Shown: positions 16,661 through 51,726 of the stretch, in pieces
Layout of the letters: every line of letters begins with the position of its first letter
Position numbering within the stretch: the first letter of the stretch is position 1
Origin: a virus
DNA: 64,000 nucleotides
Reading direction: 5' to 3' (one strand)
Virus record (IMG/VR): IMGVR_UViG_3300045988_107889
Location: 32,001-96,000 of that record
Position numbers and translations under genes: made by a program
Notes under the pieces: model-generated
Told to the model about the DNA's origin: nothing
The model's database searches: none
The model's input: the letters and a program-made list of their open reading frames with translations, nothing else

Positions 16661-17449
16661 ATGAATAACAATGAATTGTTGAAAAAGTACGAATCCACTA
16701 CCACCACCGACCTGAACAATCAGGTGAAGTCCGCTGTCGAGAAGGCAAACGCCTATGCTAAACAGCCCGAACTGAACCAGGTCGAGCTGTTGAAGCTCCG
16801 TGCCGATGCCGTTGCTCTGGCAGATGACTATAACCGTCTGGTAAAGCTCCGCCGTCTGGGCGAGCTGGCCGCCATGTCCTACGGGGACGCCATCAACGCC
16901 ATGACGGTAGAGGGCGGGGAAACTTGCCCCAAGATGGAAGTGATTCTCGATGGGGAGATCATGAACATCACCACGTCCAACGCCACCCGTATCCGCTGGA
17001 ACGAGTTGTTGAAGGCTGGCCAGTGTCCCGACGGTTACGAAAACCTGGAATCCCTGGTAAAGGTTTTCACCCACAACTGCCTCACCAACAAATTTGAAAA
17101 GGGTCAGTTGGTCGAGCTGCCCCCGCTGGACCCCGCTATCAAAGCGGTCGCTAATGGTCGTGACAACTGGGACTCTGGCTCTATGAATAAGTTGCAGTGC
17201 CAGATCCGGGATCTCATCGGCTGGATGTTCCCGGTGGACGAAGTAGGGGAATACTCTGCTCCTAGAAAGTCTGATGTACGGTGGTTTTCTGACATCGTTT
17301 GCCCTGCGAGTGACCGCGCTGGTGAACCTGCCCACTATGTCCAGCGCAAGGTATCTACTTTGTTGGACTCCCTGTTCAGAGTGTTCTATACCCTGAAAGA
17401 GGAGAAGGAAGTGGTCGTACGGCCTGCAAAAGCTAGCAAGAACCAGTAA
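16661..17449 (+). CDS. hypothetical protein
   Basis: 262 aa. SD AAAGGAG lies 8 nt upstream. First gene of the rightward arm. The overlapping - strand ORF looks like an antisense artefact. Confidence 0.75.
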   Translation: MNNNELLKKYESTTTTDLNNQVKSAVEKANAYAKQPELNQVELLKLRADAVALADDYNRLVKLRRLGELAAMSYGDAINAMTVEGGETCPKMEVILDGEIMNITTSNATRIRWNELLKAGQCPDGYENLESLVKVFTHNCLTNKFEKGQLVELPPLDPAIKAVANGRDNWDSGSMNKLQCQIRDLIGWMFPVDEVGEYSAPRKSDVRWFSDIVCPASDRAGEPAHYVQRKVSTLLDSLFRVFYTLKEEKEVVVRPAKASKNQ

Positions 17450-17559
17450 GTCGTTCCGGCGACTATAAACAGGCGTTAGGCCGGGAGCGTTCGCAGGTTA
17501 GGGCAAGCCCAACCTGCGAGGTCGCAGGAATAACATAGGTGGATTCTGTCTATGCCTGC

Positions 17560-23571: not shown

Positions 23572-23648
23572 ACCAGCATAGTTTTAAATGGGAAAACAAC
23601 GGTCTCCAAAACCGTAGTTCTAGGTTCGAGTCTTAGTGCTGGTGCCAC
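23572..23648 (+). tRNA. tRNA-Trp(CCA)
   Basis: Acceptor ACCAGCA/TGCTGGT. Anticodon arm ACGGT-CTCCAAA-ACCGT. T arm CTAGG-TTCGAGT-CTTAG. Ends GCCA. Confidence 0.8.
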
Positions 23649-24053
23649 GTGCAAGTTTAATTGCACGGTGTGTAGTGTGAAAAAAGTCATATATTGCTCT
23701 ATGTATATAACCTCACGGCGTAAAAGAGGTTGACTGTCTGACCGCAGTTATTCCAGTGCAATTCTGGTTGCCGTACACGCTGCTCAAAGCGGGTGAAGAG
23801 GTGTGGCACACTCCTTCCGTGCCTCACTTATGACTTCAAGGCGGTGCAATTCCGCCTAGCAGCTCTCAATCGCTCTAGTTAACTGGTTCTGGGGCGAGGG
23901 TCAAAACCAGCAACCTAAACATTGATTGCAGACACCTGGTTAAGTACAGGCTAGGCAAGAAAGCTCTCAGGCACGGTTGGGCAACACAATCCAGCCCTAT
24001 CCTTTGGTTAGGCCGACTGATTGATAGGGCGGTTGTGGTTGCTGAACAAATAT

Positions 24054-24144
24054 CTCCCTGTAGCTAAATTGGTTATAGCTTCCAACTTATAATTGGAAGG
24101 CCCTCATAAGGTATATGGTGATTCGAATTCACCCAGGGAGACCA
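24054..24144 (+). tRNA. tRNA with anticodon UAU (nominally Ile) and a class II-like long variable arm
   Basis: Acceptor CTCCCTG/CAGGGAG. D arm GCTA-AATTGGTTA-TAGC. Anticodon arm TCCAA-CTTATAA-TTGGA. 19-nt variable region AGGCCCTCATAAGGTATAT. T arm GGTGA-TTCGAAT-TCACC. Ends ACCA. Confidence 0.65.
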
Positions 24145-24195
24145 CGATACCACGATAAAAATCTAATTCCATAAATAAGAAAGTGAGGAACTAAT

Positions 24196-24849
24196 ATGAA
24201 CAAAGAAACTATGACCGTCCATAAAGCTCTTGCGGAGCTGAAAATTTTGGACGCTAGAATTTTCAACGCCACTTCTGGCAAAACATTTGTCGCCGCGAAG
24301 AAGGTGAGCGACAAAAAGATCGGCGGTGTGTTGGTCGAAACCCTCAAGAAGGATATGAAGTCTGATTATCAGTCTGTTACGGACTTGATTGCTCGTCGGA
24401 CTGCCATTAAGAGAGCAGTTGTGCTCTCTAATGCCAAAGCTAAGGTAGTAATTGGTGGTGAGACCTATACTGTGGCAGAAGCTATTGAAATGAAGAACCA
24501 TGGCCTCATGGCAAAGAGAGACTTGCTGGATGTAATGGTTCGGCAGTATGAAAAGGCTCGTGCCGAGGTCGCCAAACACGAAGGCGAGTGGATTGAAGCG
24601 AAAGCCGAGCAATACATTATGAATTTCCTTCAGTCGCAGCCCAAAGAGGCCAAGACAACCAAGGATTCTGAGGTCGTTAAGCGGTTGAGAGAAGAGTATA
24701 TTGCCAACAATACGTATGAACTCATTGATCCGCTTGACATTGGTAATGAAATCAAGGTTTTGAGCGATTGGATTGACGCGTTTACTGCGGATGTAGATTC
24801 TCAGCTGTCTGTGTCCAATGCGACCACTACAATCACCGTAGAATACTAA
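24196..24849 (+). CDS. hypothetical coiled-coil protein embedded in the tRNA cluster
   Basis: 217 aa. SD GTGAGGA. No motif recognised with confidence. Confidence 0.7.
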   Translation: MNKETMTVHKALAELKILDARIFNATSGKTFVAAKKVSDKKIGGVLVETLKKDMKSDYQSVTDLIARRTAIKRAVVLSNAKAKVVIGGETYTVAEAIEMKNHGLMAKRDLLDVMVRQYEKARAEVAKHEGEWIEAKAEQYIMNFLQSQPKEAKTTKDSEVVKRLREEYIANNTYELIDPLDIGNEIKVLSDWIDAFTADVDSQLSVSNATTTITVEY

Positions 24850-25028
24850 AATAATCAACTTGCTGCAACCCGAAAACCTAAAACGGTAACCCATCGTGCT
24901 GACGGCACTTGGTTCGATGTAAAAATGAACAAATATGTGCCAACTACAAGGCAAACTTGAAATTTTGTGCTTGTAAAAAGATTGGGCGGTTAATCCAAAT
25001 CTCTTATAAAAAGAAGATATTTGCTGTA

Positions 25029-25190
25029 AAGCTCAAATTTCAAAGCTCGAATTTCAAAATTCAAGGCTCAAAGATCTTCAGAAGATTAAAGTTCAAGGGT
25101 CAACGTTCAATGGTTAAAGTTTTACAAAATCCTGGGTTAATGGTTTGGGTCAGTTATCAACGCCCACGGGTCAACCACCAGGCTGGGTTG
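25029..25190. repeat. degenerate short-period repeats
   Basis: GCTCAAATTTCAAA / GCTCGAATTTCAAA / ATTCAAGGCTCAAAG / GTTCAAGGGTCAACGTTCAA, followed by GGGTTAA..GGGTCA..GGGTCA..GGGTTG. Confidence 0.6.
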
Positions 25191-25205
25191 TAGCAAGTTC
25201 AATAT

Positions 25206-25290
25206 GCGGGATTGGCGGAATTGGTAGACGCATCGTGTTTAAGTCTCGATGTCGAAAGACGTAGGAGTTCGAGTCTCCTATCCCGTACCA
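25206..25290 (+). tRNA. tRNA-Leu(UAA)
   Basis: Acceptor GCGGGAT/ATCCCGT. Anticodon loop TTTAAGT. Variable arm TGTCGAAAGACGT. T arm AGGAG-TTCGAGT-CTCCT. Ends ACCA. Confidence 0.85.
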
Positions 25291-25439
25291 AAGAAAAGCC
25301 CATAGTTTGCGGACTATGACACCTGAAAAGTGGCGGTTTGCTTCTGGTAGACCGTAGTAGTGTGTTGACATCCTGGAAGAGACAGGAGTTCCCCTTTTTG
25401 ATCCCCCTTACATAGCTACCCCGCTTTGCGGGGTAGCGT

Positions 25440-25515
25440 GGCCGATTAGTTTAAATGGTAAAACGGCGGATTTGTACCCCGCAGATGTCGAGTTCGAGCC
25501 TCGCATTGGCCTCCA
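25440..25515 (+). tRNA. tRNA-Thr(UGU)
   Basis: Acceptor GGCCGAT/ATTGGCC. Anticodon loop TTTGTAC. T loop TTCGAGC. Ends TCCA. Confidence 0.8.
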
Positions 25516-25516
25516 T

Positions 25517-25590
25517 GCTACTATAGTTTAATGGTTGAACGGTTGTTTCGTAAGCAACAGGTTCCAGTTCGATTCTGGGTAGTAGCTCCA
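25517..25590 (+). tRNA. tRNA-Thr(CGU)
   Basis: Acceptor GCTACTA/TAGTAGC. Anticodon arm GTTGT-TTCGTAA-GCAAC. T arm TCCAG-TTCGATT-CTGGG. Ends TCCA. Confidence 0.85.
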
Positions 25591-25593
25591 TAT

Positions 25594-25668
25594 CTGGGTG
25601 TAGCGCAATGGAAGCGCTCCTGATTTGGGATCAGGAGGTTGTCAGTTCGAGCCTGACCACTCAGACCA
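25594..25668 (+). tRNA. tRNA-Pro(UGG)
   Basis: Acceptor CTGGGTG/CACTCAG. Anticodon arm CCTGA-TTTGGGA-TCAGG. T arm GTCAG-TTCGAGC-CTGAC. Ends ACCA. Confidence 0.85.
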
Positions 25669-25670
25669 AT

Positions 25671-25745
25671 GCAGGCGTAGTTCAACGGCTAGAACACCGG
25701 TCTTCCAAACCGGAAACGCGAGATCGGCACTCGTCGCCTGCTCCA
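25671..25745 (+). tRNA. tRNA-Gly(UCC)
   Basis: Acceptor GCAGGCG/CGCCTGC. Anticodon arm CCGGT-CTTCCAA-ACCGG. T arm GCGAG-ATCGGCA-CTCGT. Ends TCCA. Confidence 0.8.
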
Positions 25746-25851
25746 TATCAAGCAACAGAAAACGATTCTCCTACCTGTTATTGTTGATAAATCACCTCCT
25801 TTCTTTACATAGCCTGGAATGGCGTTAAACTCTGCTCTGCTTGATTTATAT

Positions 25852-25925
25852 AGCGCCGTAGCATAACGGTAATGCAACGGACTTTGACTCCGTAAACGGT
25901 AGTTCGACACTATCCGGCGCTGCCA
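25852..25925 (+). tRNA. tRNA-Gln(UUG)
   Basis: Acceptor AGCGCCG/CGGCGCT. Anticodon arm ACGGA-CTTTGAC-TCCGT. T arm GGTAG-TTCGACA-CTATC. Ends GCCA. Confidence 0.85.
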
Positions 25926-25983
25926 CGTTCGTTTTATACGGACACTTGCTTTCATTAACCGGCGGTACCACCGCCGGTAACAT

Positions 25984-26068
25984 GTGGGCGTGATGTAATT
26001 GGCAAACATGCGAGATTTAGGTTCTCGTGTCGAAAGATGTGCGGGTTCGAACCCCGTCGCCCACTCCA
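25984..26068 (+). tRNA. tRNA-Leu(UAG)
   Basis: Acceptor GTGGGCG/CGCCCAC. Anticodon arm CGAGA-TTTAGGT-TCTCG. Variable arm TGTCGAAAGATGT. T arm GCGGG-TTCGAAC-CCCGT. Ends TCCA. Confidence 0.85.
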
Positions 26069-27039: not shown

Positions 27040-27430
27040 CAGTTAATAACCAACAAAAACATTCGCATTTTTTCTCAAAAAAAATGAGAAGCTATTTCCG
27101 GAACGGGATAGTAATATATTGCCAGAGGAGAGCATCTCGCTGCCAAGCCTGATGGCAGTACCGCCGAGCGACTCGTGCATCCGCCAACCCAGCCGCAGGT
27201 CATCACAAGAGCAGACGCGAAAAAAAAAATGCCCACCACGCAGTCGCCCCGCATCAGAAAGGCACAAGGCTCGAAGCGACATGGAAGGTCGCAACGGTAC
27301 AACTATAGGCAAACGCACCCTGCAAGCAACGCAAGTACATTATGGCGCAAGCCACCTAACGACATCGCTCGATTTCCTGATTTCCTGAGGCCCATATCTA
27401 GGAGTGTAATGTTGGTTTACGACTGAGTTA
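27040..27430 (+). ncRNA. ORF-free, T-poor A/C-rich segment A (candidate structured RNA; paralogue of 32880-33320)
   Basis: No SD-preceded ORF. It contains an A-loop hairpin TTCTCA-A7-TGAGAA (27072-27090), CCGGAACGG (27098-27106) and the box CATCCGCCAACCCAGC (27178-27193). All three recur in the same order upstream of the RT gene. Confidence 0.4.
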
Positions 27431-27458: not shown

Positions 27459-27848
27459 ATGGAAATTATCGTATGTGGTAACGCAGTAACGCTCAAGAGT
27501 GCTTTCACTCTTGAAGAAATCAATCGCGCAGCTCTGTATCGGCCTAAGTCTGTACAGCTGCTGGACGAAGATGGCAACGCACTGTTTTACACTCTCGCTG
27601 GCGAGAGAGGAGTAGTAGCACCGACCGGTATTATCTATGAGGCTGAGTCTTGTGATGGCTCTGGTCGTGCGGTCGTAACAGTGAGTCTTATTACCGAAGC
27701 TGACCGTTCCGTACGTGAGGTTGTTGCCGAGAGATATGCTTCTGTTATCGAGAAGGTAGAAAAGATTGAAGCCCAGGTGCGCGAAGCGCTGGAAGAGATC
27801 GACGTTATGATGGCACGGGTCAGTTCCAAGATCGTAGTAGCTGGCTAA
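27459..27848 (+). CDS. hypothetical protein ending ...KIVVAG
   Basis: The ATG at 27459 has SD AAAGGAG (the ORF track starts at 27438). 129 aa with a C-terminal Gly. Confidence 0.7.
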   Translation: MEIIVCGNAVTLKSAFTLEEINRAALYRPKSVQLLDEDGNALFYTLAGERGVVAPTGIIYEAESCDGSGRAVVTVSLITEADRSVREVVAERYASVIEKVEKIEAQVREALEEIDVMMARVSSKIVVAG

Positions 27849-27889: not shown

Positions 27890-28129
27890 ATGATTATTGT
27901 TAATGTTCGTAGCACCACCCGGCGTTTTGATGGTCAGGCTGTAGATGAGAGCGTGGAAACCCCTCGTTCTCTGTTCGAGAAGATCGGAATTGAGTGCAGC
28001 CGTAGCGTAAATTCTCTTTCCGGCACGATTCTGACGCCTGATGATATGAGTTGCACTTTTGCCGAACTTGGTGCCGCTGGTGTTTGTACTCTGAGTGCTA
28101 TTGTTAAGGCGCAAGGTAACGCGATCTGA
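27890..28129 (+). CDS. small beta-grasp-sized protein (ubiquitin-like candidate)
   Basis: 79 aa. 'MIIVNVRS...' then 'LSGTILTPDDMSCTFAELGAAGVCTLSAIVKAQGNAI' resembles a ThiS/MoaD/Ub-like layout, with a Gly three residues from the end. SD GAAAGGAAG. Confidence 0.7.
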   Translation: MIIVNVRSTTRRFDGQAVDESVETPRSLFEKIGIECSRSVNSLSGTILTPDDMSCTFAELGAAGVCTLSAIVKAQGNAI

Positions 28130-28255: not shown

Positions 28256-29671
28256 ATGTTTTCAAATTGTTTGAAGCGCAGTGAAGTTTTAGTGCTGGCC
28301 CCAGAGCTGGAGTCTGAGTTTTCTAATATTGCTGGCGACGGGACGTTCAAAGGCGATGACTTTGCGTTGGCAATGGCTCGGTTGTTTTTGAAGCCAAGAG
28401 TTCCGGCGGACGTGTGCATCACGGTTAGAGTGGTGGATTCTAATTGTGCTGATTGGATTACGTGGATAAAAGACAAAGAGCGTTTTTCGGAGGTGACTTC
28501 TCAAGACAACACAATTACATTTTGCGTGTGTGATAAGGTTAAGGCCGTAGAAACTTTAGTCAGTAATATGAAATGTGCGAGCAGTTGGAAAGAGAAGACG
28601 GCAAGAGAGCTGAATCTAATGAAAGAACGACTCGGTATCATACTGAGAATTTTCAGTAATGAAGAGAGGAAGAGTACGGTTGTCCTTACCGACGTGGATA
28701 ACTATGGCTCGTGGCATTACCTAGTGTGTCTTTTCAATGTATTCTGCCCATGGTACATTAAAGACAGGACTGAAGCGGAGTCAAAGTTTATTAAGATTCT
28801 GTCCAAAGAAGACTCCGGCATGAGTGTAATCTGTAAAGCGATGAACGATATGGTTGCCGCTGCTGTGGACGTGGCCTCAGCTAAAAAGAGATATTACCTT
28901 TATGGCTATGAGGGAAAGCTAAGGAACGTACAGAGGGAAAGATACACAAAGAAGATGGAGAGTGCAAGAAGTCAGATCAATAAATTGACGTCCGATTTGA
29001 GAGATTGGTATAGAGAATACGAAGGTTGGTCTTTGTTGGTGGCAGCAATTGACAACAGTAATGTTGAGAGCAAGAACGAGTTAATGGATTATTTTCTGTC
29101 GAACAAAAATGTGTCTGTTGAGAGCGGTGACAAAGATGGGAATATCGTATATGTTGTAACTGGTTATATGACACTGTTTGATCCAGAGATTGCGAGAGAG
29201 TACATCAACAATTGGTCGTCGATTTTTTATACGCAGTCTTCGTATGCGGGCCTGACAGAAAGTGATACTAAAAAGTTAATGACAGGGATTTTCATTGACT
29301 CTGATATCAAAGTAAGAATGTGTTCCGCATGGAGACTTTCTTTCGGAGGAGGGGTACTACCCATCGTGGCATATGGGTATGGCTGTGAATACAACAGCTA
29401 TCTCCCCAACACACACCTTGATAAATATGGTTGCATGGGGAGCTGGCAACAGGCGTTAGAGAAATCTTGCGACAAATGTGACTACGTTTATACGGTAGAC
29501 ACGACGTGTGCCGAAAGCGGGAATCTGAATCTTAGTGATACTGTCGTATTGAGATCATTCCTTGAAGAGTTGTTGAGAGAAGGCGCTGTAGTATTGGAGT
29601 TGCCGGATGGGCGAGTAGTTAATTACATCGACGCAATTAAATGGATAAAGGAGAATAAGAGCAATGAATAA
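28256..29671 (+). CDS. large hypothetical protein; C-terminal region has an E2/UBC-like 'PN-x7-C' motif
   Basis: The ATG at 28256 has SD AAAGGAGAAG. 471 aa. 'YLPNTHLDKYGCMGSW' has the same Asn-to-Cys spacing as HPN-x7-C of UBC folds. This is motif-level evidence only. Confidence 0.7.
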   Translation: MFSNCLKRSEVLVLAPELESEFSNIAGDGTFKGDDFALAMARLFLKPRVPADVCITVRVVDSNCADWITWIKDKERFSEVTSQDNTITFCVCDKVKAVETLVSNMKCASSWKEKTARELNLMKERLGIILRIFSNEERKSTVVLTDVDNYGSWHYLVCLFNVFCPWYIKDRTEAESKFIKILSKEDSGMSVICKAMNDMVAAAVDVASAKKRYYLYGYEGKLRNVQRERYTKKMESARSQINKLTSDLRDWYREYEGWSLLVAAIDNSNVESKNELMDYFLSNKNVSVESGDKDGNIVYVVTGYMTLFDPEIAREYINNWSSIFYTQSSYAGLTESDTKKLMTGIFIDSDIKVRMCSAWRLSFGGGVLPIVAYGYGCEYNSYLPNTHLDKYGCMGSWQQALEKSCDKCDYVYTVDTTCAESGNLNLSDTVVLRSFLEELLREGAVVLELPDGRVVNYIDAIKWIKENKSNE

Positions 29672-30350
29672 GGCAACTAATGCAACGGATTTGTTGGCTG
29701 CGACAAATCCGTGCAAAATCGTATACAGTAAGAAGGCATGGATGAAGACGTGTTTGCTTGTTATGAATAGGAATCTTGAGGTTGGATGGCACGGAGTTGC
29801 AAGAAGGTTGGAAAATCCAGCTGAGTTTATCGTGGAGGACGTCTTGGTATTCCCCCAGAAGGTCACGTCGGCAAGCACCGAACCTGAAGATGCGGACTAT
29901 GTGAACTGGCAGGATTCTCTTAACACGGAAATATTCAATAAGGTTCGGTTGTACGGGCATTCTCATGTGAACATGGGTGTCAGTCCATCTTCTACGGATA
30001 TAAAGTATAGAGCAGATTTGCTGACAGACGTTGATGATTTCTACGTCTTTCAGATTTTCAATAAGAAAGGCTACATATCCTCACAGGTTTATGATGTTAG
30101 AGAAGGCATCCTGTACGAAAGCGACAATGTGGAACTCGCAGTGGAACGATGGAACCCCGCTGTATATGATTTGTGCAGAGGGTTTTTCGATAACATTGAC
30201 CGGTTTGAGAAGGTGGACGTGCGTGATGTACAGGATGGAATCGAGTGGATCATGAACGCAGCATCCGAGTTTGAAAAATTCATGGAGGACGCAGATAAAA
30301 TTATTGATGAGCGGCCCGATTGGCGTGACGGTAAGATGTTAATTAAGTAA
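29664..30350 (+). CDS. JAB/MPN (JAMM) metalloprotease
   Basis: 'GHSHVNMGVSPSSTD' fits H-x-H-x7-S-x2-D exactly, with an upstream Glu in 'EFIVEDVLVFPQ'. The gene overlaps its upstream neighbour by 8 nt. Confidence 0.85.
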   Translation: MNKATNATDLLAATNPCKIVYSKKAWMKTCLLVMNRNLEVGWHGVARRLENPAEFIVEDVLVFPQKVTSASTEPEDADYVNWQDSLNTEIFNKVRLYGHSHVNMGVSPSSTDIKYRADLLTDVDDFYVFQIFNKKGYISSQVYDVREGILYESDNVELAVERWNPAVYDLCRGFFDNIDRFEKVDVRDVQDGIEWIMNAASEFEKFMEDADKIIDERPDWRDGKMLIK

Positions 30351-30523
30351 AAAACATATGTGCCTGTACAGATATGTTAAATTACATATCACTCTTGTCG
30401 GAACGAGGGAGTAACAAATGGCTGTGTCGCTTCAAAAGTTTTCCGCTCTGGGAGTAGGAAAACTTTTTGAACTTAAACAGCTGGTTAGCTGTTCAGAGGT
30501 ACATAAGAAAGGAGAAGACCGGT

Positions 30524-30865
30524 ATGGAGGTATATTGTGTGATAACAGAAACAGACCAGGGTATTGATTTATCCGGTGTTTATTGGAATTTGGAGAGTGC
30601 GGTAGAACACGTGAAACGTAGGTTTTATTCAGTGTTTCAAGAATACGTCGATGATGGATGCGAAATGATTGAAGGTGACAATTTTAATGCTCCAGATAAA
30701 TACGGCGCGACAATTTATCTGGAACCGGACGACTATTGGATTTGGCGTGTTTACTTTGGCGAAGTAAGAGATGAGTGCCTGGTGAGTGGGCCGAACGAAG
30801 TGGTGCCGCCGCTAGAAGGGAAGCGTGTTGACGAAGAGACGCTTATGAATTGTTTGCTGCTATAG
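30524..30865 (+). CDS. CLLL-tail family protein 1
   Basis: 113 aa from the ATG with SD AAAGGAG. Ends '...VDEETLMNCLLL'. Confidence 0.7.
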   Translation: MEVYCVITETDQGIDLSGVYWNLESAVEHVKRRFYSVFQEYVDDGCEMIEGDNFNAPDKYGATIYLEPDDYWIWRVYFGEVRDECLVSGPNEVVPPLEGKRVDEETLMNCLLL

Positions 30866-30875
30866 AGGTGATATG

Positions 30876-31214
30876 ATGTTTGAACTTGGGCAGAAAGTTA
30901 CGCTTGCCCCAAAGTCATGGGATGAATTTCGGGGTGCTTTAATGGAGTTGTTTGCGAGAGAGATGATAGTAGATGAATTCTCAACTACTCATAAAGAAAT
31001 GATATTGGTTACAGGGGTGCTTTATGGGGAAGGCGATTCTTGGTTTAACGACCTTCTAATAAATGGAGGTGAGATTATCAAGTGCTATGCTACTGGTTGG
31101 TATATGGTGAATATAAATGGAGTAAAACTGAAATTTCACGAAAGCGTGTTGTGTCTGAAAGAAGACATGAGGTCAGTTGATGAAAAATTGTTCATAAGTT
31201 GCTTATTATTGTGA
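30876..31214 (+). CDS. CLLL-tail family protein 2
   Basis: 'MFELGQKVTLAPKSWDEF...' ends 'VDEKLFISCLLL'. SD GAGGTG lies 5 nt upstream. Paralogue of protein 3. Confidence 0.75.
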   Translation: MFELGQKVTLAPKSWDEFRGALMELFAREMIVDEFSTTHKEMILVTGVLYGEGDSWFNDLLINGGEIIKCYATGWYMVNINGVKLKFHESVLCLKEDMRSVDEKLFISCLLL

Positions 31215-31223
31215 GGTGATATA

Positions 31224-31556
31224 ATGTTTAGACCTGGGCAGCGGGTTGAGCTTATTCCCAAAACGTGGGATGAATTTAATGATAACTTACGGGCGGTATT
31301 TCCGAATGGAGCTGTGTCGCAGAGCGTAGACATCATCACAAACGAAAGATTTATATACGCCGACGATGTGATGTACGCGGAGGGCGATCCTTACCTCAGA
31401 GAGTTTATAAGAGACGGCGGCGAGATCGTTGAGTATGAACTTGGCGGTTGGTACAGGATAAGGGTTAGCAAAAAAGAGATGTCTTTCTATAAAAGTGTGT
31501 TGCGGTTAAAGCAATCTATTGATGAGCAGGTTTTTATGAACTGTTTGTTGTTGTGA
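31224..31556 (+). CDS. CLLL-tail family protein 3
   Basis: 'MFRPGQRVELIPKTWDEF...' ends 'IDEQVFMNCLLL'. SD GAGGTG lies 5 nt upstream. Confidence 0.75.
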   Translation: MFRPGQRVELIPKTWDEFNDNLRAVFPNGAVSQSVDIITNERFIYADDVMYAEGDPYLREFIRDGGEIVEYELGGWYRIRVSKKEMSFYKSVLRLKQSIDEQVFMNCLLL

Positions 31557-31570
31557 TAAGAGGTGGCGCT

Positions 31571-31840
31571 TTGAATATCGTAGCTGGTCAGAAATTTAGA
31601 GTTAAAAAGTGGTCAGAAAGCAATTCTGACCGCTTTTTTACCAGTAGCCATGAAAAGTATTGCGGGAAAACATTAACGGTGAGAGAAAAAGGTATACATA
31701 GAGGTGTGAGCGGTTACGTTCGCCCGATAATTTGGGCGTACGAATGTAGAGAGGTCGTGTGGTTTTCATGGATGATAGAACCTATTGAGGACCGCCGTCG
31801 TGTTAATGAAAATCTGTTTCTAAGCTGCTTGTTGTTGTAG
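31571..31840 (+). CDS. CLLL-tail family protein 4
   Basis: TTG at 31571 lies 5 nt after GAGGTG (the ORF track starts at 31553). '..GQKFRVKKW...WMIEPIEDRRRVNENLFLSCLLL'. Confidence 0.7.
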   Translation: MNIVAGQKFRVKKWSESNSDRFFTSSHEKYCGKTLTVREKGIHRGVSGYVRPIIWAYECREVVWFSWMIEPIEDRRRVNENLFLSCLLL

Positions 31841-31847
31841 GTGATGT

Positions 31848-32189
31848 ATGAAATTTGAAGATATGTATGTTGGGCAAAAGATTAGGGTACGGACTTTAGA
31901 CGACATGGTATCTGACCCTGATTTAACGTATAGACTTGATAAGTCTTTTAAAGTAGCGACGATCAGGTCTAAGGATAATACAACTCATTTGAGCTTAATT
32001 CGTAAGACAATGCGTTATTGTGGTACAGCTGTGACGGTGTTCTCATTAACAGAAAATCTTGCACCAACAGAGTGGAGGCATGTTTATATAGAAGAAGATA
32101 ATCAATATTACCCATGGGAGTCTTGGATGTTTGAACCGATTGAAAGTAAGGTTGATAGTGATGTATTCTTGAGTTGTTTAATGTTATGA
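31848..32189 (+). CDS. CLLL-tail family protein 5
   Basis: '..VGQKIRVRTLDDM...WMFEPIESKVDSDVFLSCLML'. Paralogue of protein 4. Confidence 0.75.
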   Translation: MKFEDMYVGQKIRVRTLDDMVSDPDLTYRLDKSFKVATIRSKDNTTHLSLIRKTMRYCGTAVTVFSLTENLAPTEWRHVYIEEDNQYYPWESWMFEPIESKVDSDVFLSCLML

Positions 32190-32202
32190 GGAGGCATGAA
32201 AA

Positions 32203-32871
32203 ATGAATTTGTCGAAGAGTATTGAGTTCTTTAACCCCACAAAGGTCAAAGAAAGAGTACATATCATCGGCTGTGGCGCGTCCGGTTCCACTGTAGCCGA
32301 ATTGTTGGCAAGAGCTGGGCTTGAGAAGGTTACTCTGTACGATTTTGACAAGGTTGAGTCGCACAATATCGCGAATCAGATGTTCAATGATAGCGACATC
32401 GGTAGAAATAAAGCTGAAGCCGTGAAAGATATGATGTTAAGTATCAATCCTGATGCAAATGGTATTGAAGTAGTTCAGGAGGGGTATACCAACCAGCGTC
32501 TGTCCGGCTATGTCTTCCTTATGGTGGACAACATTGATCTCCGCAGAAAAATTTGCGAAGAAAATGCTAGAAACCCGTATATCAAAGCTGTGTTTGATAC
32601 CAGACTTCGGCTGACGGACGCGCAACACTTTGCGGCTGACTGGAGTTCTAGTGCGATGGTTGAAAATCTGATTAACTCCATGCAGTTTACTCAAGAGGAA
32701 GCTCTGGCTGAAACTCCTCGATCTGCATGTAACCTGGAGCTTAGTATCGCTCCTTCCGTGCGGATGATTTGCTCTTGTGCAGTAGCAAACTTCATGAATT
32801 TTGTGAATGGGCGTTCGATCAAGAAGATAGTTTTGATCGACGCCTTTGATTTTACTATGGAAGCATATTAA
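32203..32871 (+). CDS. ThiF/MoeB/HesA-family E1-like adenylyltransferase
   Basis: 'RVHIIGCGASGSTVAELLARAGLEKVTLYDFDKVESHNIANQMF...DIGRNKAEA' is a Rossmann GxGxxG plus the D.D.V..sN..RQ box. 222 aa. SD GAGGAGG. Confidence 0.85.
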   Translation: MNLSKSIEFFNPTKVKERVHIIGCGASGSTVAELLARAGLEKVTLYDFDKVESHNIANQMFNDSDIGRNKAEAVKDMMLSINPDANGIEVVQEGYTNQRLSGYVFLMVDNIDLRRKICEENARNPYIKAVFDTRLRLTDAQHFAADWSSSAMVENLINSMQFTQEEALAETPRSACNLELSIAPSVRMICSCAVANFMNFVNGRSIKKIVLIDAFDFTMEAY

Positions 32872-32879
32872 ATATTAGT

Positions 32880-33320
32880 TGTTTGAGGTGGAAATTTCGT
32901 GTCGCCACGCGCCTTAATGGCTAAAGAGATGCAGGGGAATGGCACGCCTGCTAACAACCAATTCAATCTAAATATCTGAAAGCACTTTCTATTTAAAAAA
33001 AATAGAAACTCTTACCGGAACGGAAGAGTGGCACATCGTCCGAAAGAGGAACCCCGCTGCGTGCGATAGCAAACCAATACTTGGTGCCCTCCAAGAAGGC
33101 TTAACACCCCGGTGGCATCTTCTCTGATGAGAAGCATCGCCCGAACAACAGGAAAAACCAGAAGGATATTCGTTCGACAGGTTCAACATCCGCCACCAGC
33201 AGGGGTATCCGGCAAACAATAAACGCCAAGTCAGGGATTTCACCGTCTCAGACGACGACAAGCTCCGCGATGAGCATCTCGTACTGACATCCAAATCCAT
33301 ATATAGTTTCAGATAAAAGC
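32880..33320 (+). ncRNA. ORF-free, T-poor A/C-rich segment B directly upstream of the RT (candidate RT-associated ncRNA)
   Basis: It contains an A-loop hairpin TTTCTATT-..A8..-AATAGAAA (32986-33008), CCGGAACGG (33015-23) and the box CATCCGCCACCAGC (33187-33200). It is on the same strand as the RT and ends at the RT's SD. The only ORF here is an SD-less antisense one. Confidence 0.45.
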
Positions 33321-33332
33321 AAGGAGAATAAT

Positions 33333-34499
33333 ATGATTTATGTAACAGCAAGAATTACAGAGCCGTATAAGCAGATTTCTTTAGAGGATATTATGTCTGC
33401 GCTGCTTCAAGATAAACATGTGAGGGAATCGAGATCTCTATATACTAGAACAGTTACATATGAGAGACTGCCCGAGAGAATCCTGGCAGGGTTTGACACG
33501 GGGAAAAAGATTGAGCTGCTGAGAGCATTTAACAAAAAGCATCAGGAACTGCTTGAAAGCGATCTTCATACGCATTACCACAAGTTTTTTATCCCGAAAA
33601 AGAGCGGCGGCATGAGAGAGATTAACGCGCCGGACGACGAGCTGATGAATTGTCTGCGAGAGCTAAAACTGCTGTTAGAATCTGAGTTTTATGCGAGCAG
33701 CCACGCCGCTGCGTACGCTTATGTCAAAAACAGAAGCAGTGTAGATGCAGCAAAAGTCCATCAGTGGAACAAGAGTAAGTGGTATTTAAAGACTGACATC
33801 AGCGGTTTCTTTCCCAACACTACTCCAAAGTTTGTATGGAACGCGCTGTCTACAATTTATCCGTTCTGTCTCATTATGGAGCACAAGAACGGGAGAGAGG
33901 AGCTTAAAAAAGCTCTGTCGCTCTGTTTCTTAGACGGCGGCCTGCCTATGGGGACACCGATCAGCCCGATGCTGACCAACCTGATTATGATTCCATTTGA
34001 TTTTGAGTTCAGTAAGTTTCTGCGCAGCCTACAGGACCCAGCGAACAGCCCTGATAGAAAGGGTAGAAGGTTCGCGTATACCAGATATGCTGACGACATG
34101 AATATTAGCTGTGGTATTGAATTTGATAAGGGGTTTATTATTAGAAAGATTGAAGAGCTATTTAGGCTGTTTGGAGCTAGTTATATCATTAAAGACGAGA
34201 AGACTCATTACGGCCCGTCGTATCATAAGAATTGGGTACTCGGTGTGATGATCAACAAGGACAACCAGATCACGATTGGGTATAAGAAGAAGCGCAACTT
34301 CGAGGCGATGCTTTTCAATTACGCGAAGGACAGAAAGAGCGGAACTTATTGGCCTCTTGAGCAACTGCAATATGTGCTCGGTCTTATGAGCTACTATCGA
34401 ATGGTTAACAGAGGAAGTATTGATGGAGTTATCACTCGCTATAGTCAGAAGTTTGGCTTTGATATTGAAGCCACGATGAAGAAGGATCTCAAAAACTAA
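33333..34499 (+). CDS. retron-type (or Abi/DRT-like) reverse transcriptase
   Basis: 'FFIPKKSGGMREINAPDDEL', 'KTDISGFFPNT', 'GLPMGTPISPMLTNL', 'YTRYADDMNIS' and 'NWVLGVMINKDNQITIG' correspond to RT motifs 1-7, including YADD and a VTG-like box. SD AAGGAGAA. Confidence 0.85.
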   Translation: MIYVTARITEPYKQISLEDIMSALLQDKHVRESRSLYTRTVTYERLPERILAGFDTGKKIELLRAFNKKHQELLESDLHTHYHKFFIPKKSGGMREINAPDDELMNCLRELKLLLESEFYASSHAAAYAYVKNRSSVDAAKVHQWNKSKWYLKTDISGFFPNTTPKFVWNALSTIYPFCLIMEHKNGREELKKALSLCFLDGGLPMGTPISPMLTNLIMIPFDFEFSKFLRSLQDPANSPDRKGRRFAYTRYADDMNISCGIEFDKGFIIRKIEELFRLFGASYIIKDEKTHYGPSYHKNWVLGVMINKDNQITIGYKKKRNFEAMLFNYAKDRKSGTYWPLEQLQYVLGLMSYYRMVNRGSIDGVITRYSQKFGFDIEATMKKDLKN

Positions 34500-34516
34500 A
34501 GGACGAGGTGTCATAT

Positions 34517-34747
34517 ATGAAAACTAAAACAGTATTGTGTAATGAGTGTAGATTCTCTAAGTACAGAGCTGGTATCTCTAGCTCTCTCGCTGCCATGTAC
34601 GGACTCCCTGGGACTCATCCATACCCGACACACACCTGTGAGAAGTATAACGTGGTAAGAGAAAGAAAGGACTACCATGTTCGGCGGCTTCCGATTTGTG
34701 TGAAGGAAAATGGCGGTGAGCAGAAAGACAAGAAGGGTAATGAGTAA
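34517..34747 (+). CDS. small Zn-ribbon-like protein
   Basis: The ATG lies 6 nt after GAGGTG. 'CNECRFSKY...HTCEKYN'. Confidence 0.55.
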   Translation: MKTKTVLCNECRFSKYRAGISSSLAAMYGLPGTHPYPTHTCEKYNVVRERKDYHVRRLPICVKENGGEQKDKKGNE

Positions 34748-34776
34748 TCTTAAAGCAGCTATGCTGGAGGTACTAT

Positions 34777-35187
34777 ATGGTAGATTGGAAGAAAAGTTTT
34801 CAATATGAAGGTATTCACTGGTGGCGGAACGTGTTTGGGATACCTTATTACTTTAAAGAGCGGAGGTACCTTCTGAAACACGGATTCACCAGAGAAGCAG
34901 AATATGATATGCCACTTTGGTTCATCAAAACGATGACGAGAGTAATGACCAGATACTCAGATACACGATGGGGAATCCCAGGCGGATATACTGATGAGGA
35001 ATGGCAGGCGGTTGTTGATAAGATGATTGAATGCCTGAAGAATATGCGGGCGTCAGAATGGTTTGAGAAGGCTCCCGAAGAGATGAGCCTGCTAGAGAGA
35101 GATATGTGGGCACAAAATATGGCCGACAAATACAAGAACGACTTCTTTGATCTGTTCAAAGAAGTCTTTTATCTTCTATGGGATTAG
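34777..35187 (+). CDS. hypothetical protein
   Basis: 136 aa. SD TGGAGGT. Confidence 0.7.
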   Translation: MVDWKKSFQYEGIHWWRNVFGIPYYFKERRYLLKHGFTREAEYDMPLWFIKTMTRVMTRYSDTRWGIPGGYTDEEWQAVVDKMIECLKNMRASEWFEKAPEEMSLLERDMWAQNMADKYKNDFFDLFKEVFYLLWD

Positions 35188-35276
35188 TGGATGAGTGAGT
35201 TGTAGAGTTATGGTTACAAGAAGGATTATCAGGAAGATTTGTTCGTGTGACTTATGAGCTTATGAAGGAGGTTGCT

Positions 35277-35480
35277 ATGGTTAAAGATGCTAAGTTTGTA
35301 ACGGTGTGGAGCGGAGATGTAACTATTACTACTGATTGCAAAGTGGATACGGAAACAAACGAAGTCTTCGATATTGAGTGTGTTGATGTAGATGTTGATA
35401 TTTTGCTTAACGAGTATATCGTTCTTGACGGTAAAGAGCGACTTGTATTTGATAGAGATGGCGAGTATTACATACTCTAA
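35277..35480 (+). CDS. hypothetical protein
   Basis: The ATG at 35277 has SD GAAGGAGG. 67 aa. Confidence 0.6.
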   Translation: MVKDAKFVTVWSGDVTITTDCKVDTETNEVFDIECVDVDVDILLNEYIVLDGKERLVFDRDGEYYIL

Positions 35481-35503
35481 CGAGATGGATTAGGAGGAGC
35501 TTT

Positions 35504-35742
35504 ATGACTTTTATTGTTAATAGAGCAAGTTTGTGGGGTACTGGTTGCCCCTGCGAAGAATCAAAACAAATGACTCTCTTCGATGGTATTAGTAAAAAAG
35601 AAAAAAGTTCTGGACTGTTGAGATAAACTCTCTGGAGGAGCTTATGGATTTCAAGAATAAATACGGAGATATTATTTTACAGGACTCAATCAATGTTAAA
35701 GGATGGTCGGAAGTCCTGATTTATGATGGGTATATTGAGTGA
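35504..35742 (+). pseudogene. small gene split into two ORFs at an A-rich tract (frameshift or slippage)
   Basis: ORF A (35504-35626, SD TAGGAGGAG) stops after 'ISKKEKSSGLLR'. A shift within AGTAAAAAAGAAAAAAG joins it to ORF B (35644-35742), giving '..KKFWTVEINSLEELMDFKNKYGDIIL..'. Confidence 0.4.
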
Positions 35743-35780
35743 CTCTATAAAAATGTAATTTTTAAGTGAAGGATTTAACT

Positions 35781-35993
35781 ATGTTCAAGGCAGGAGATAG
35801 AGTTTGTATTTCTGGTGATACATCGGAACTTTGGATTCATGATTATAATTGTAGAGTTGTTACGGAAGGTACAGTAGGGGTAACACCAAAAAAGTATGAT
35901 AAGAAAATTTATGTTACGCTTGATTCGATTGACGGAGAAGGCGATGTCGGAATCTATGTAAGAAAAAGTAAGGTTAGATTGGTAAGCAATTAA
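35781..35993 (+). CDS. hypothetical SH3-like small protein
   Basis: 'MFKAGDRVCISGD...'. 70 aa. Confidence 0.6.
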   Translation: MFKAGDRVCISGDTSELWIHDYNCRVVTEGTVGVTPKKYDKKIYVTLDSIDGEGDVGIYVRKSKVRLVSN

Positions 35994-36018
35994 AAAAGAT
36001 AATTTGAAAGGAGTAAAT

Positions 36019-43042: not shown

Positions 43043-43187
43043 TAGGTGTTTTATGTACAATTTTTATGATGATTATAAAAACCCTATTTCGGAGATTGAA
43101 CAGGAACAAATACATACCCAAGCACAGAGTTTGAGCTGGTAATGCGTAGAAAGACTAGTGAAGATAGGTAAAGACGAGGTGAATATT

Positions 43188-44057
43188 ATGTCGGTAAAAG
43201 ATGCGCTCGGCGACAGAATGAAAGCGTACTACGAAAGCATTCCGAAGACAAAGCTAATGCGAAGAACGCCGGTTGCGATCAGACTGGATGGTAAAGCGTT
43301 TCACACTTTCACAAAAGGTTTTCAAAAGCCTTTTGATGATGTGCTGATCAAATCAATGCAAGATACAATGAAGTACCTCTGTGAGAACATCCAGGGTGTG
43401 GTGTTTGGCTACACTCAATCCGATGAAATCACGTTAATTCTTGTAGACTATAAGAATCTTAATTCTGCTGCTTGGTTTGATTATGAGGTGCAGAAAATGT
43501 GCAGCGTGGCAGCGAGCATGGCTACCCTTGCGTTTAACAAAGCGTTTGCAAAGCGGTACGACGAGTGGGGTAGAGAACAGTTCCCGTGCTGGGATGAAGG
43601 TGGCACAAATGATCCTATTGATAAAGATCTGCTGAAGCTGAGTTGGACTTATGGTTATGCCGAAGGTAGAGGGGCTATGTTCGATGCAAGAGTGTTCAAC
43701 GTCCCAAAAGAAGAAGTGGCGAACCTCATCTATTGGAGGCAGCTGGATGCTATCAGAAATAGCATTCAAATGGTTGGTAGAGCAAACTTTAGCCATCGAG
43801 AACTAGATCGTAAGTCTTGCAGCGATATCCAGGATATGCTGATGACAGAGAAGGAAATTAACTGGAATGACTTTCCTGCGTGTCAAAAGAGAGGTAGTTG
43901 CTGCGTTAAAATGTATCAAGTTGGTGAACAGGAATGGAAGAGTCACGCCGAAGATGAGTTGATGCCTAGTGGAAGAACTAAGTGGGAAGTGATTGATGAG
44001 GTTCCTATCTTCAAAGGGAGCGAAAGATGTTACATAGAGAAATTGATTTACTTGTAA
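43188..44057 (+). CDS. Thg1-like 3'-5' nucleotidyltransferase (tRNA-His guanylyltransferase family)
   Basis: 'LGDRMKAYYE....RTPVAIRLDGKAFHTFTKGF.KPFD...' and 'FGYTQSDEITLIL' match the Thg1/TLP N-terminal signature. The ATG lies 6 nt after GAGGTG. Confidence 0.8.
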   Translation: MSVKDALGDRMKAYYESIPKTKLMRRTPVAIRLDGKAFHTFTKGFQKPFDDVLIKSMQDTMKYLCENIQGVVFGYTQSDEITLILVDYKNLNSAAWFDYEVQKMCSVAASMATLAFNKAFAKRYDEWGREQFPCWDEGGTNDPIDKDLLKLSWTYGYAEGRGAMFDARVFNVPKEEVANLIYWRQLDAIRNSIQMVGRANFSHRELDRKSCSDIQDMLMTEKEINWNDFPACQKRGSCCVKMYQVGEQEWKSHAEDELMPSGRTKWEVIDEVPIFKGSERCYIEKLIYL

Positions 44058-50006: not shown

Positions 50007-50078
50007 GTGAGGGCTAGATACAACCTCTTTCCACCCTGTAAGTTGTCGGTGCCTAACCGTCGGGTAGAAGGAGGTTTC

Positions 50079-50492
50079 ATGGAATACGATAAGCCGCGAC
50101 TAGGCGACATATATCTAATGAGTTTTAGTGGGGTTGGCAGTGAACAGAAAGGCGTCAGGCCGGGAATCATTTTCCAAAACGATATTGGAAATGACAGAAG
50201 CCCGAACGTCATAGCGCTGCCACTCACGACCAGAATTAAGAATCTGACTCAACCCACACATGTACTTCTGCCAGCGGAGAAATACAACCTGCTGGCGGAT
50301 AGCATTGTCTTATGTGAGAATCCGCAGAGGATGTCAAAGTCAAGACTGCTGAAATATCTAGGTGCTCTAGAAGAGGAGGATATTAAGAGCATAGCTATTG
50401 GAAACATCCTATCCTCCTCGGCCATCGCCCTTCTTTCAGAGGAGGAACTCCTGAACGTATGGAAGGAGTCAAAAAGGATTCAAGGATTGTGA
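50079..50492 (+). CDS. MazF/PemK-family toxin-like endoribonuclease
   Basis: 'GDIYLMSFSGVGSEQKGVRPGIIFQND....NVIALPLTTR...PTHVLL...DSIVLCENPQRMSKSRL' is the PemK signature. The ATG has SD GAAGGAGG. Confidence 0.85.
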   Translation: MEYDKPRLGDIYLMSFSGVGSEQKGVRPGIIFQNDIGNDRSPNVIALPLTTRIKNLTQPTHVLLPAEKYNLLADSIVLCENPQRMSKSRLLKYLGALEEEDIKSIAIGNILSSSAIALLSEEELLNVWKESKRIQGL

Positions 50493-50652: not shown

Positions 50653-51363
50653 ATGGAAAAAGAAAATCACGCAACGTTGAACATCTATCAGAAGCTCGCG
50701 GCAGTGCAGAAAGCTGTAGATGTCGTCAAGAAAGACAAGAAGGGGTATGGTTACAGCTACACCTCTGATGTGGAATTGTTGCCGAAGATTAACAGCGCTG
50801 TCGCGGAGTACGGCTTGACACTGGTTCCTGGGATTGTTCAAGGGACAGCAGATGTACGGCCTTTTAGCTACGAGAAAACGAAAGGTGGTAAGACGGAAAC
50901 AGTAAATGAGTTCTTGGTCTCTGCTGATATGGTTTACACCTGGGTCAATAACGACAATCCCGAAGAGAAGATCGTTGTGCCTTGGACGATGACTGGCAAT
51001 CAAGCAGATAGCAGCCAGGCGTTTGGTTCGGCTCTTACCTACAGTAACAGATATTTCCTGCTGAAATACTTTCAGTGTGCTACTACTACCGACGATCCGG
51101 ACTTCATTCGCTCGAAGCAAAAAGAAGAGAAGTCTAAGAACGAACTCGCATCTATCATTGAGGAAATTGACGCAATCGCTAACGACATCGCGGCAAAAGA
51201 TCCTAGCAAGAGAGAAAAGATTAGAGAGTTGGTTACAAAGCACGTAGATAAGCGTGACGAAAATGGGAAGCTGATTCCCACTGGAGACTACAAACAAATT
51301 AAAAAGAAGGCAAGAGCGACTGCTCTGCTGAGAGATTTGAATAAACTACATACGGAGGAATAA
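50653..51363 (+). CDS. ERF-family single-strand annealing recombinase
   Basis: 'IYQKLAAVQKAV..V.KD....GYSYTS.....KI......GL' and 'DSSQAFGSALTYSNRYFLLKYF' match the Erf pattern. Confidence 0.8.
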   Translation: MEKENHATLNIYQKLAAVQKAVDVVKKDKKGYGYSYTSDVELLPKINSAVAEYGLTLVPGIVQGTADVRPFSYEKTKGGKTETVNEFLVSADMVYTWVNNDNPEEKIVVPWTMTGNQADSSQAFGSALTYSNRYFLLKYFQCATTTDDPDFIRSKQKEEKSKNELASIIEEIDAIANDIAAKDPSKREKIRELVTKHVDKRDENGKLIPTGDYKQIKKKARATALLRDLNKLHTEE

Positions 51364-51366
51364 TAC

Positions 51367-51726
51367 ATGGGTTTTCATACTGGCGCGTATGCAACAATTT
51401 GGTCTGTCGAAGACAAAGGTAATTATACAAAGGTAAATCTGTCTGTCAGCCAGAAGAATAAGAACACTGGCGAGTACGAGACTAAATTTAGTGACTTCGT
51501 AAATTTTGTTGGTGCGGCGCACGCTAACGCAAAGGAGCTGAAGCCGAGAGATAGAATTCGTATCGGCGATATGGATGCAACCAATAGCTATAGCAAGGAG
51601 ACGAATAAGCGGTACTACAATTTTGCTGTGTTCTCTTTCGAGTCCGCAGATAACTCCAGAGGCAACTCTGATAATGGCGCAATTTCGGCAAATCAGCCTA
51701 CCGTAACAGATGACGACCCCTTTTGA
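51367..51726 (+). CDS. ssb: single-stranded DNA-binding protein
   Basis: OB-fold-sized N-terminal domain, a disordered tail and the acidic C-terminal tip 'TDDDPF'. Confidence 0.8.
   Translation: MGFHTGAYATIWSVEDKGNYTKVNLSVSQKNKNTGEYETKFSDFVNFVGAAHANAKELKPRDRIRIGDMDATNSYSKETNKRYYNFAVFSFESADNSRGNSDNGAISANQPTVTDDDPF

Follow-up and report, generated by a model that had tools for sequence, protein, structure and literature searches.

A 64,000-nt stretch of viral DNA (positions 32,001 to 96,000 of the IMG/VR virus record IMGVR_UViG_3300045988_107889), called the window below and the frame for all coordinates unless a related locus is named, encodes a retron-type reverse transcriptase (RT). The gene is probably part of a phage-borne, possibly prophage-borne, retron variant in which one RT is combined with several template RNAs. 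Each RNA unit of ~300–370 nt would be transcribed on the gene strand, and its two ends would pair to give an a1/a2 stem. The RT would recognise a conserved domain made of hairpin 1 and hairpin 2, and priming would occur from the 2′-OH of the G immediately 3′ of a1 (G32982 in unit B, immediately upstream of the RT gene; G27065 in unit A, upstream of the neighbouring E1/JAB cassette). Copying of the interior would begin at a conserved AUGUAG or AUAUAG just 5′ of a2, and the product would be a branched RNA–DNA molecule [multicopy single-stranded DNA (msDNA)] of ~200 nt or more. Because the units share the hairpin domain, one RT could serve all of them in trans. By analogy with known retrons we infer both the synthesis of msDNA by the RT and the use of the units in trans by a single enzyme. 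A role in phage–host or phage–phage conflict appears most likely, since the module lies amid conflict and RNA-repair genes.

As known so far, retrons are anti-phage systems of bacteria in which a single RT is joined by a single template RNA and a single effector. The present family is large (> 2000 RTs, 260 IMG/VR loci), its carriers are large gut phages and prophages, a single RT is flanked by two to four template RNAs of its own, and the RT gene is nearly always found beside a cassette encoding ubiquitin-like (Ubl), JAB and E1 proteins, not a known retron effector. The segment predicted to be copied is a hotspot of variation between otherwise near-identical phages. If the RT is active, phages themselves deploy retrons, a new route to targeted hypervariation might emerge, and long, weakly structured retron templates could become usable in genome-editing tools.

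The reverse transcriptase belongs to the retron clade

The RT gene (33333–34499, plus strand) has an ATG start codon preceded by a ribosome-binding site (AAGGAG, 33321–33326) and encodes a protein of 388 residues with a YADD catalytic box; it is the sole RT in the window. A preliminary description of this DNA, made from the sequence alone, had listed the motifs IPKKSGGMREINAP, DISGFFPNT, GLPMGTPISP, YTRYADDM and VLGVMIN, all of which are present in the open reading frame (ORF). It had also reported neither a maturase nor an endonuclease domain, in agreement with the Pfam scan of the protein, which yields RVT_1 alone (E = 2.4e-13).

Profile and structure databases place the enzyme among retron RTs. 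In PADLOC the 25 top-ranking models all describe retron RTs, led by RT_II-A (6e-41) and RT_I-A (6e-39). In NCBIfam the retron St85 family scores 163 bits, below its cut-off of 235 bits, and the group II RT/maturase family scores 67 bits. A sequence search of the PDB at E ≤ 1e-3 returns retron RTs only (Ec83 at 1e-25, then Ec78, Ec67, Ec86 and Kva2). With a profile of the RT family the 12 best PDB matches are retron RTs (Ec83, 6.5e-34); group II and Cas6-RT-Cas1 RTs trail at E ~1e-12 and weaker. The closest relatives by sequence are the RTs of retron types I-A and II-A (Retron-Eco4/Ec83, Eco7/Ec78, Sen2/St85).

A group II intron is ruled out: the protein contains only RVT_1, and an Rfam scan of positions 32000–36000 finds no group II intron and no other RT-linked family, even at E ≤ 10, just as the preliminary description had seen no group II domain V in the short gap downstream of the RT. 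That description had left the choice between a retron and a module like the defence-associated reverse transcriptases (DRTs). Only the retron half stands; the DRT models score far under their cut-offs (Drt2, 25.9 bits with a cut-off of 390; Drt3a, 16.9 bits with a cut-off of 200). Membership of the retron clade, as opposed to the group II, diversity-generating retroelement (DGR) or DRT enzymes, is well supported by these sequence comparisons.

A retron-like RNA unit directly upstream of the RT gene

The gap between the E1 and RT genes (32872–33332) spans 461 nt and contains no plus-strand ORF of at least 40 codons. Positions 33029–33306 are poor in T and rich in C (T 17.6%, C 29% vs. T 26.7%, C 19% in the window), and the leader folds better than its shuffles (z = −3.1). 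The earlier picture of an ORF-free, T-poor leader is confirmed.

A scan of the leader for a1/a2 inverted repeats and with covariance models, suggested in the preliminary description, locates a retron-like non-coding RNA (ncRNA) of msr–msd type, unit B (32973–33315, plus strand). It starts with TATCTGAAA and finishes with the perfect complement TTTCAGATA, 325 nt further on (9/9 inverted repeat), and scores 73 bits (E = 6e-16) with the first covariance model (R1, see below). The a1 arm (32973–32981) would pair with a2 (33307–33315) over 9 bp, and a2 finishes 17 nt ahead of the RT start codon. The candidate priming G (32982) directly follows a1; the opposing G (33306) directly precedes a2. Between them lie hairpin 1 (32986–33008), hairpin 2 (33008–33029, with a CCG-GAA-CGG tip) and the T-poor interior (about 33046–33290).

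The preliminary description needs correction in that 343 of the 461 nt of the leader make up the retron-like RNA, and the first ~85 nt contain an unrelated RNA. This is a skipping-rope RNA [RF02924; 32878–32958, plus strand; Rfam score 50.3 bits vs. a gathering score of 36.7, model positions 1–80 of 80] sitting in the space that separates unit B from the E1 stop codon. It is also present in the nearest relative (L001) and lacking from most others. Rfam finds no skipping-rope RNA in relatives L003 and L006, and the leader match to both begins only downstream of 32878–32958; we therefore regard it as an insertion and not as part of the RT module. Apart from it, no RNA family known to Rfam matches the leader or the module. 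Predicted promoter-like sites (12 vs. 15.3 ± 4.1 in shuffles) and terminator-like sites (7 vs. 5.8 ± 2.1) are within the shuffle range. Two orphan RNA classes, skipping-rope and drum, turn up repeatedly no more than a few kb from the RT in related phages: a further skipping-rope copy lies inside the tRNA array of locus L109 (8449–8531) and a drum RNA near the tRNAs of L024 (6669–6774).

Paralogous units recur around the RT and the cassette

A profile search with the leader identified a second unit upstream of the E1/JAB cassette. This paralogous retron-like ncRNA, unit A (27048–27417, plus strand; R1 score 67.9 bits, E = 1.3e-14), has no RT directly downstream and lies just upstream of the first cassette gene. 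Its a1 arm is split (27048–27055 and 27059–27064) and pairs with a similarly split a2 (27402–27407 and 27410–27417; 8/8 plus 6 pairs). G27065 follows a1 and is opposed by G27401, hairpin 1 (27072–27090) adjoins hairpin 2 (27091–27112), and the interior is likewise T-poor. The covariance model also finds an isolated hairpin 2 with a GUAACA motif (30391–30419, plus strand) between the JAB gene and the first of the small genes that follow it; a copy occupies the equivalent place in L006, and the element is probably the remnant of a unit. The preliminary description was right to expect a template RNA upstream of the RT and missed that it is present in several copies.

The covariance model was first built from 10 copies (R1) and then rebuilt from 25 (R2). 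With R2, 93 sources yield 113 matches, every one on the gene strand, at ~280–390 nt before the RT start, ~20–60 nt after the RT stop and ~280–300 nt further downstream, with two to four units per RT gene. L007, whose RT is 52% identical, carries four copies with hairpin stems that differ in sequence and remain complementary. In L054, unit 1 (3632–3976) precedes the RT, and units 2 (5157–5422) and 3 (5433–5742) follow it in tandem, with no ORF between them. Hairpin 2 shows standard pairs in 99.6% of alignment cells and 195 cells changed on both sides (46 ± 6.5 after shuffling). Fitting the alignment to the model favours pairing; controls with slid partners give 34–51% pairing. The closing pair of hairpin 2 is G-U in 85 of 110 sequences, which argues for a structure of the plus-sense strand and not for a signal in duplex DNA. 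Hairpin 1 is variable in sequence, with compensated changes.

The terminal stem was searched for in 109 units by looking for the best helix between the 17 nt on the 5′ edge of this motif and the sequence 150–480 nt downstream. A helix score of at least 8 is reached by 76% of the units vs. 18% with shuffled arms, and a1 nearly always stops right before the conserved G. The arms vary in sequence between units (CTGTAAC/GTTACAG, CCTGTAAT/ATTACAGG, TTTGCAAT/ATTGCAAA, GATTCACGAC/GTCGTGAATC). Among 83 non-redundant units (median length 296 nt), G follows a1 in 71; the base before a2, which was not a selection criterion, is G in 98% of these 71, usually within AUGUAG or AUAUAG. In the published description of retron transcripts, encoded beside the RT gene, the a1/a2 stem comes with ‘two opposing G residues’ and precedes one to three msr hairpins (Mestre et al., 2020; PMC7736814). 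The phage family combines a retron-clade RT with a same-strand a1/a2 ncRNA, opposing Gs and msr hairpins, and resembles types I-A and II-A in the position of the ncRNA beside the RT, the a1/a2 stem, the opposing Gs and the two or three msr hairpins. That the leader RNA has the msr–msd anatomy of a retron is accordingly well supported at the level of sequence and predicted pairing.

We think it highly improbable that the units are ordinary regulatory leaders or small RNAs, acting in processing or antitermination, and that the RT works without them. Some units do precede genes other than the RT (unit A the cassette, unit 3 of L054 a phosphoesterase-like gene), the interiors hold little conserved structure and, as given above, the promoter and terminator scans stay within the range of shuffles. 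However, one unit is always within ~20 nt of the RT ribosome-binding site, an a1/a2 stem with opposing Gs is a specific retron signature, tandem units have no ORF between them, and the units of the examined loci occur only around the RT and the cassette.

Departures from canonical retrons

A number of features count against assignment to the retrons. Retron RTs have a region X, NAxxH between RT2 and RT3, in which H is the most conserved residue, and a region Y, a VTG triplet in RT7, in which G is the most conserved. Both are only partly kept. The RT of the window reads AAKVH, with the N replaced by A, and alignment of the family to NAKIH of Ec83 gives A-[AV]-K-[VR]-H with an invariant H143; the VTG triplet, aligned to Ec83 in the same way, becomes [NIV]-L-G, with L in place of T and an invariant G304. 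A long stable stem-loop of 10–50 bp in the msd is typical of retrons, though not family-defining. The 83 unit interiors are barely more structured than their shuffles (mean z of the minimum free energy = −0.87), and the longest uninterrupted interior stem averages 7.6 bp (7.1 bp when shuffled) and reaches at least 10 bp in only 12 of the 83; the long msd hairpin is therefore mostly absent. No Rfam retron msr model matches positions 32000–36000. Nor is there a recognisable effector of a known retron type, since PADLOC, run on six neighbouring proteins, matched the E1 protein alone (E1–E2 models).

The differences from types I-A and II-A can be stated more exactly. In the phage RT other residues take the place of the N in NAxxH and of the VT in VTG, a conserved N-terminal stretch of ~70 residues precedes the part shared with solved retron RTs, and the score falls below the 235 bits of the NCBIfam family. 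The phage family has several ncRNA units per RT and no ATPase/HNH or nucleoside deoxyribosyltransferase effector, and a weakly structured, hypervariable interior of ~200 nt replaces the stable msd hairpin.

Coding by the T-poor interiors was considered and rejected. Long stop-free frames are no commoner on one strand than on the other (mean z = 0.89 for either), the units do not come in lengths divisible by three and their indels do not respect any frame; we attribute the open frames to composition. Nothing supports a DRT2-style concatemer gene in the units. Compared with positions 33049–33332 of the window, the unit interior of L002 (1–284) repeats a hairpin segment of ~21 nt (CTTCTCTGATGAGAAACAGCC) additional times in tandem, which could stem from slippage or template switching.

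The unit interiors are hypervariable

Divergence was compared in 30 independent close pairs of loci with RT nucleotide identities of 94–100%, counting gaps as differences. Divergence is 15.4% in the unit interior, 4.1% at RT third codon positions, 2.5% in upstream bins and 3.2% in the last 60 nt before the RT; the interior exceeds the RT third positions in 26 of the 30 pairs (Wilcoxon p = 3e-5). In L031 and L107 (RTs 98.9% identical) the flanking 300-nt windows are 98–100% identical, yet unit 1 has 43 substitutions, all in the interior, and unit 2 another 22. The RTs of L048 and L061 are identical and the 3.8 kb upstream show 0–1 mismatch per 100 nt, yet 21 differences fall within the 200-nt interior. 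The variable zone is sharp-edged, both ends of the region predicted to be copied are conserved, and units downstream of the RT are equally variable in several pairs. The same L048 (6400–6900)/L061 pair, from phages identical elsewhere, has a second island of 15–18% divergence 1.3 kb after the RT, which overlaps small ORFs and in which no clear unit was detected.

A hypervariable segment beside a phage RT is superficially reminiscent of DGRs, and this, together with the phage setting, is what can be said for an RT of DGR, group II intron or DRT/UG (unknown group) defence type. We nonetheless consider such an origin exceedingly improbable. The sites that vary are not biased towards adenine (A 0.35, C 0.38, G 0.37, T 0.37) and neither unit interior has a second copy in the 64-kb window; on these grounds we reject a DGR. 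The preliminary description had named grouping of the RT with group II or DGR enzymes, or an intron or a template/variable repeat pair, as findings that would speak against a retron; the RT groups with neither, and neither an intron nor a repeat pair was found. Group II introns lack their RNA and maturase here, and the Drt2 and Drt3a scores leave little room for a DRT/UG enzyme. Unlike phage DGRs, with which the family shares only the presence of a hypervariable segment beside a phage RT, it has an RT of another clade, no repeat pair, no adenine pattern and no target gene; it is the non-coding template itself that varies.

A different source of the variation would be the retron itself. The cDNA of a unit might re-anneal, in replicating phage DNA, to the locus it came from, assisted by a single-strand annealing protein, so that RT errors pile up nowhere but in the copied segment, whether as a side effect or as a means of diversifying the msDNA. 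The excess of interior over third-position divergence, the 21 interior differences between loci with identical RTs, the similar variability of downstream units, and the sharp edges of the variable zone with conserved ends like homology arms would all fit. The phage encodes an Erf-like single-strand annealing protein (50653–51363, plus strand; PHROG 155, E = 1.9e-28) with an exonuclease nearby (51710–52633), and an engineered retron combined with an annealing protein (a ‘recombitron’) edits phage genomes continuously (Fishman et al., 2023; bioRxiv 10.1101/2023.03.24.534024); for these two reasons self-editing by RT-derived DNA is a concrete and testable idea. We hold it to be rather doubtful. 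Variant blocks are shared among subsets of phages, which points to exchange of alleles by recombination, and the leader of the window is 98.9% identical to that of its nearest relative L001 whereas the RTs are 94% identical, so that mosaic recombination must be common. Relaxed constraint combined with diversifying selection may be another cause, and the pairs do not reveal the direction of mutation.

Like recombitrons, the phage brings together a retron-type RT, template RNAs homologous to the phage genome and an annealing protein, but recombitrons are artificial and expressed by the host, and self-editing by a natural element is so far hypothetical. A more far-reaching version, which we judge unlikely, is a natural counterpart of the recombitron with several templates, whose cDNAs would be written into the phage genome by the Erf-like protein and make it hypervariable without an adenine rule. 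The msDNAs might then be decoys or guides, perhaps acting with the ubiquitin-like cassette.

The E1/JAB cassette and its relation to the RT

The cassette lies upstream of the RT on the same (plus) strand. Its first gene (27459–27848) encodes ~129 residues and is followed by the gene for a candidate Ubl protein of 79 residues (27890–28129). Homologues of the latter finish in a conserved VKAD(N/G)A followed by 0–5 variable residues, the pattern expected of a Ubl protein trimmed by a JAB peptidase. The third gene (28259–29671) encodes p493, a conserved protein of 470 residues in a conserved position. Its AlphaFold2 model has a mean pLDDT (predicted local distance difference test) of 86 and no fold match in the PDB with E below 0.1; on this model p493 may represent a new fold or a new combination of domains. 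Next comes a candidate JAB/JAMM-type metallopeptidase of 228 residues (29664–30350), whose position is kept across the family. Its HxHx7Sx2D motif (GHSHVNMGVSPSSTD) is exact, as read by eye from the translation; no PADLOC profile matches the protein. Sequence searches with the JAB candidate, p136 and the Ubl candidate against the PDB, Pfam, PHROGs and NCBIfam were all empty.

The last cassette gene (32203–32871) encodes a minimal E1-like adenylating enzyme of the ThiF family (222 residues; Pfam ThiF, 5e-24). Its best PDB relatives include UBA5 and MoeB as well as MccB and PaaA, both peptide-adenylating; a profile search for distant homologues has only close family members among the matches listed and is silent on anything outside the clade. 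Between the JAB and E1 genes are five tandem small paralogues of 95–132 residues (30467–32189, plus strand) ending in [NS]CL[LM]L. These CLLL-type proteins, with their CaaX-like tail, occur only in close relatives and could be substrates of the E1 enzyme. The phage cassette is comparable to bacterial Ubl/E1/JAB systems [Bil; type II CBASS (cyclic oligonucleotide-based anti-phage signalling system), Cap2/Cap3] and to peptide-adenylating E1-like enzymes (MccB, PaaA) through its E1-like adenylation domain, its JAMM-motif protein and its small protein whose C-terminus is conserved. Unlike these, the phage cassette has no recognisable E2, a minimal E1 of 222 residues and the additional 470-residue protein without a fold match. 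To our knowledge none of these systems is linked to an RT.

The association of cassette and RT raises the tentative possibility, a refinement of the multi-template retron proposed here, of a tripartite retron of a new type, in which a Ubl–JAB–E1–p493 effector would be checked or directed by the RT and its msDNA. The order p493–JAB–E1–RT is kept in about 130–147 of 164 loci, down to RT identities of 37–40%. When loci are collected by a search with E1, the RT is 0.7–3.5 kb downstream in 79 of 80, the exception being cut by the contig end. In the subclade of the window, units are also located within the cassette and where it begins. Against this, all the loci come from one phage clade, so that the synteny may reflect shared ancestry only. 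Other, unrelated genes are often inserted between E1 and RT, four loci have the RT and units with neither E1 nor p493 within 6 kb, the E1 gene of L113 is located after the RT, and in the wider clade the units gather around the RT and not around the cassette. The earlier idea that the E1/JAB system is the partner of the RT therefore holds as synteny and not, as yet, as functional coupling.

The other partner proposed at that time, the small Zn-ribbon-like gene directly after the RT (34508–34747, plus strand), has to be given up as a general one, because matches are confined to six loci, all with RT identities of at least 75%. By contrast, the preliminary remark that an RT beside E1/JAB lies outside the known retron architectures is borne out by Table 1 of Mestre et al. 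(2020; PMC7736814), where none of the 13 retron types has an E1/JAB architecture. Our literature searches, which were incomplete, turned up neither a phage retron beside E1/JAB nor one with multiple ncRNAs; prior publication is possible.

Phage context and distribution of the family

Homologues of the RT are numerous (2106 at E ≤ 1e-5) and are found on contigs of gut phages or prophages. By pattern scanning, 260 relatives were identified in IMG/VR and 72 in GTDB genomes; almost without exception their contigs come from gut Clostridia-type metagenome-assembled genomes. Close relatives are on IMG/VR contigs of 100–108 kb, and some family members on contigs of 326–692 kb. The elements are hosted by large gut phages of ~100–180 kb that have their own replication genes and probably infect Clostridia. 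Cultured phages (INPHARED) contain no such RT, the best match being an uncultured human faecal contig (42% identity), and no near-identical DNA was found in deposited phage genomes.

The window covers a replication and accessory region of the phage, with a primase-helicase, an NAD-dependent ligase, NrdD and two integrase-like genes. The DNA polymerase gene (55974–57971 and 58957–60090) is split by a group I intron (57895–58206). Also present are a Pistol ribozyme (17449–17526), an array of 10 tRNA genes (23572–26065), a Thg1-like tRNA-His guanylyltransferase (43158–44057) and a MazF-like protein (50007–50492). In relatives the RT is surrounded by RtcB, RNA ligase, Macro, Fic and PIN genes and by tRNA arrays; its neighbourhood is an accessory and conflict region.

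Carriage by a phage or prophage is shared with the E. coli retrons Ec67 and Ec73, and the E. coli retrons studied so far are, with few exceptions, related to prophages (Mestre et al., 2020; PMC7736814). Retrons of the Ec67/Ec73 kind have a single ncRNA and a known effector, fused or adjacent; the carriers here are instead large gut phages, although some family members lie beside an integrase and bacterial genes. One such case is L098 (634–12676; RT identity 48%), where the RT is next to an integrase and bacterial housekeeping genes, with no E1/JAB. Its neighbours include a DD-carboxypeptidase, a nucleoside hydrolase, a RelB/DinJ-like antitoxin, an AAA_14/DUF4143 ATPase and a DEAD-like helicase, and weak unit-like matches occur downstream of the RT. 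This locus probably marks where an integrated prophage or island ends.

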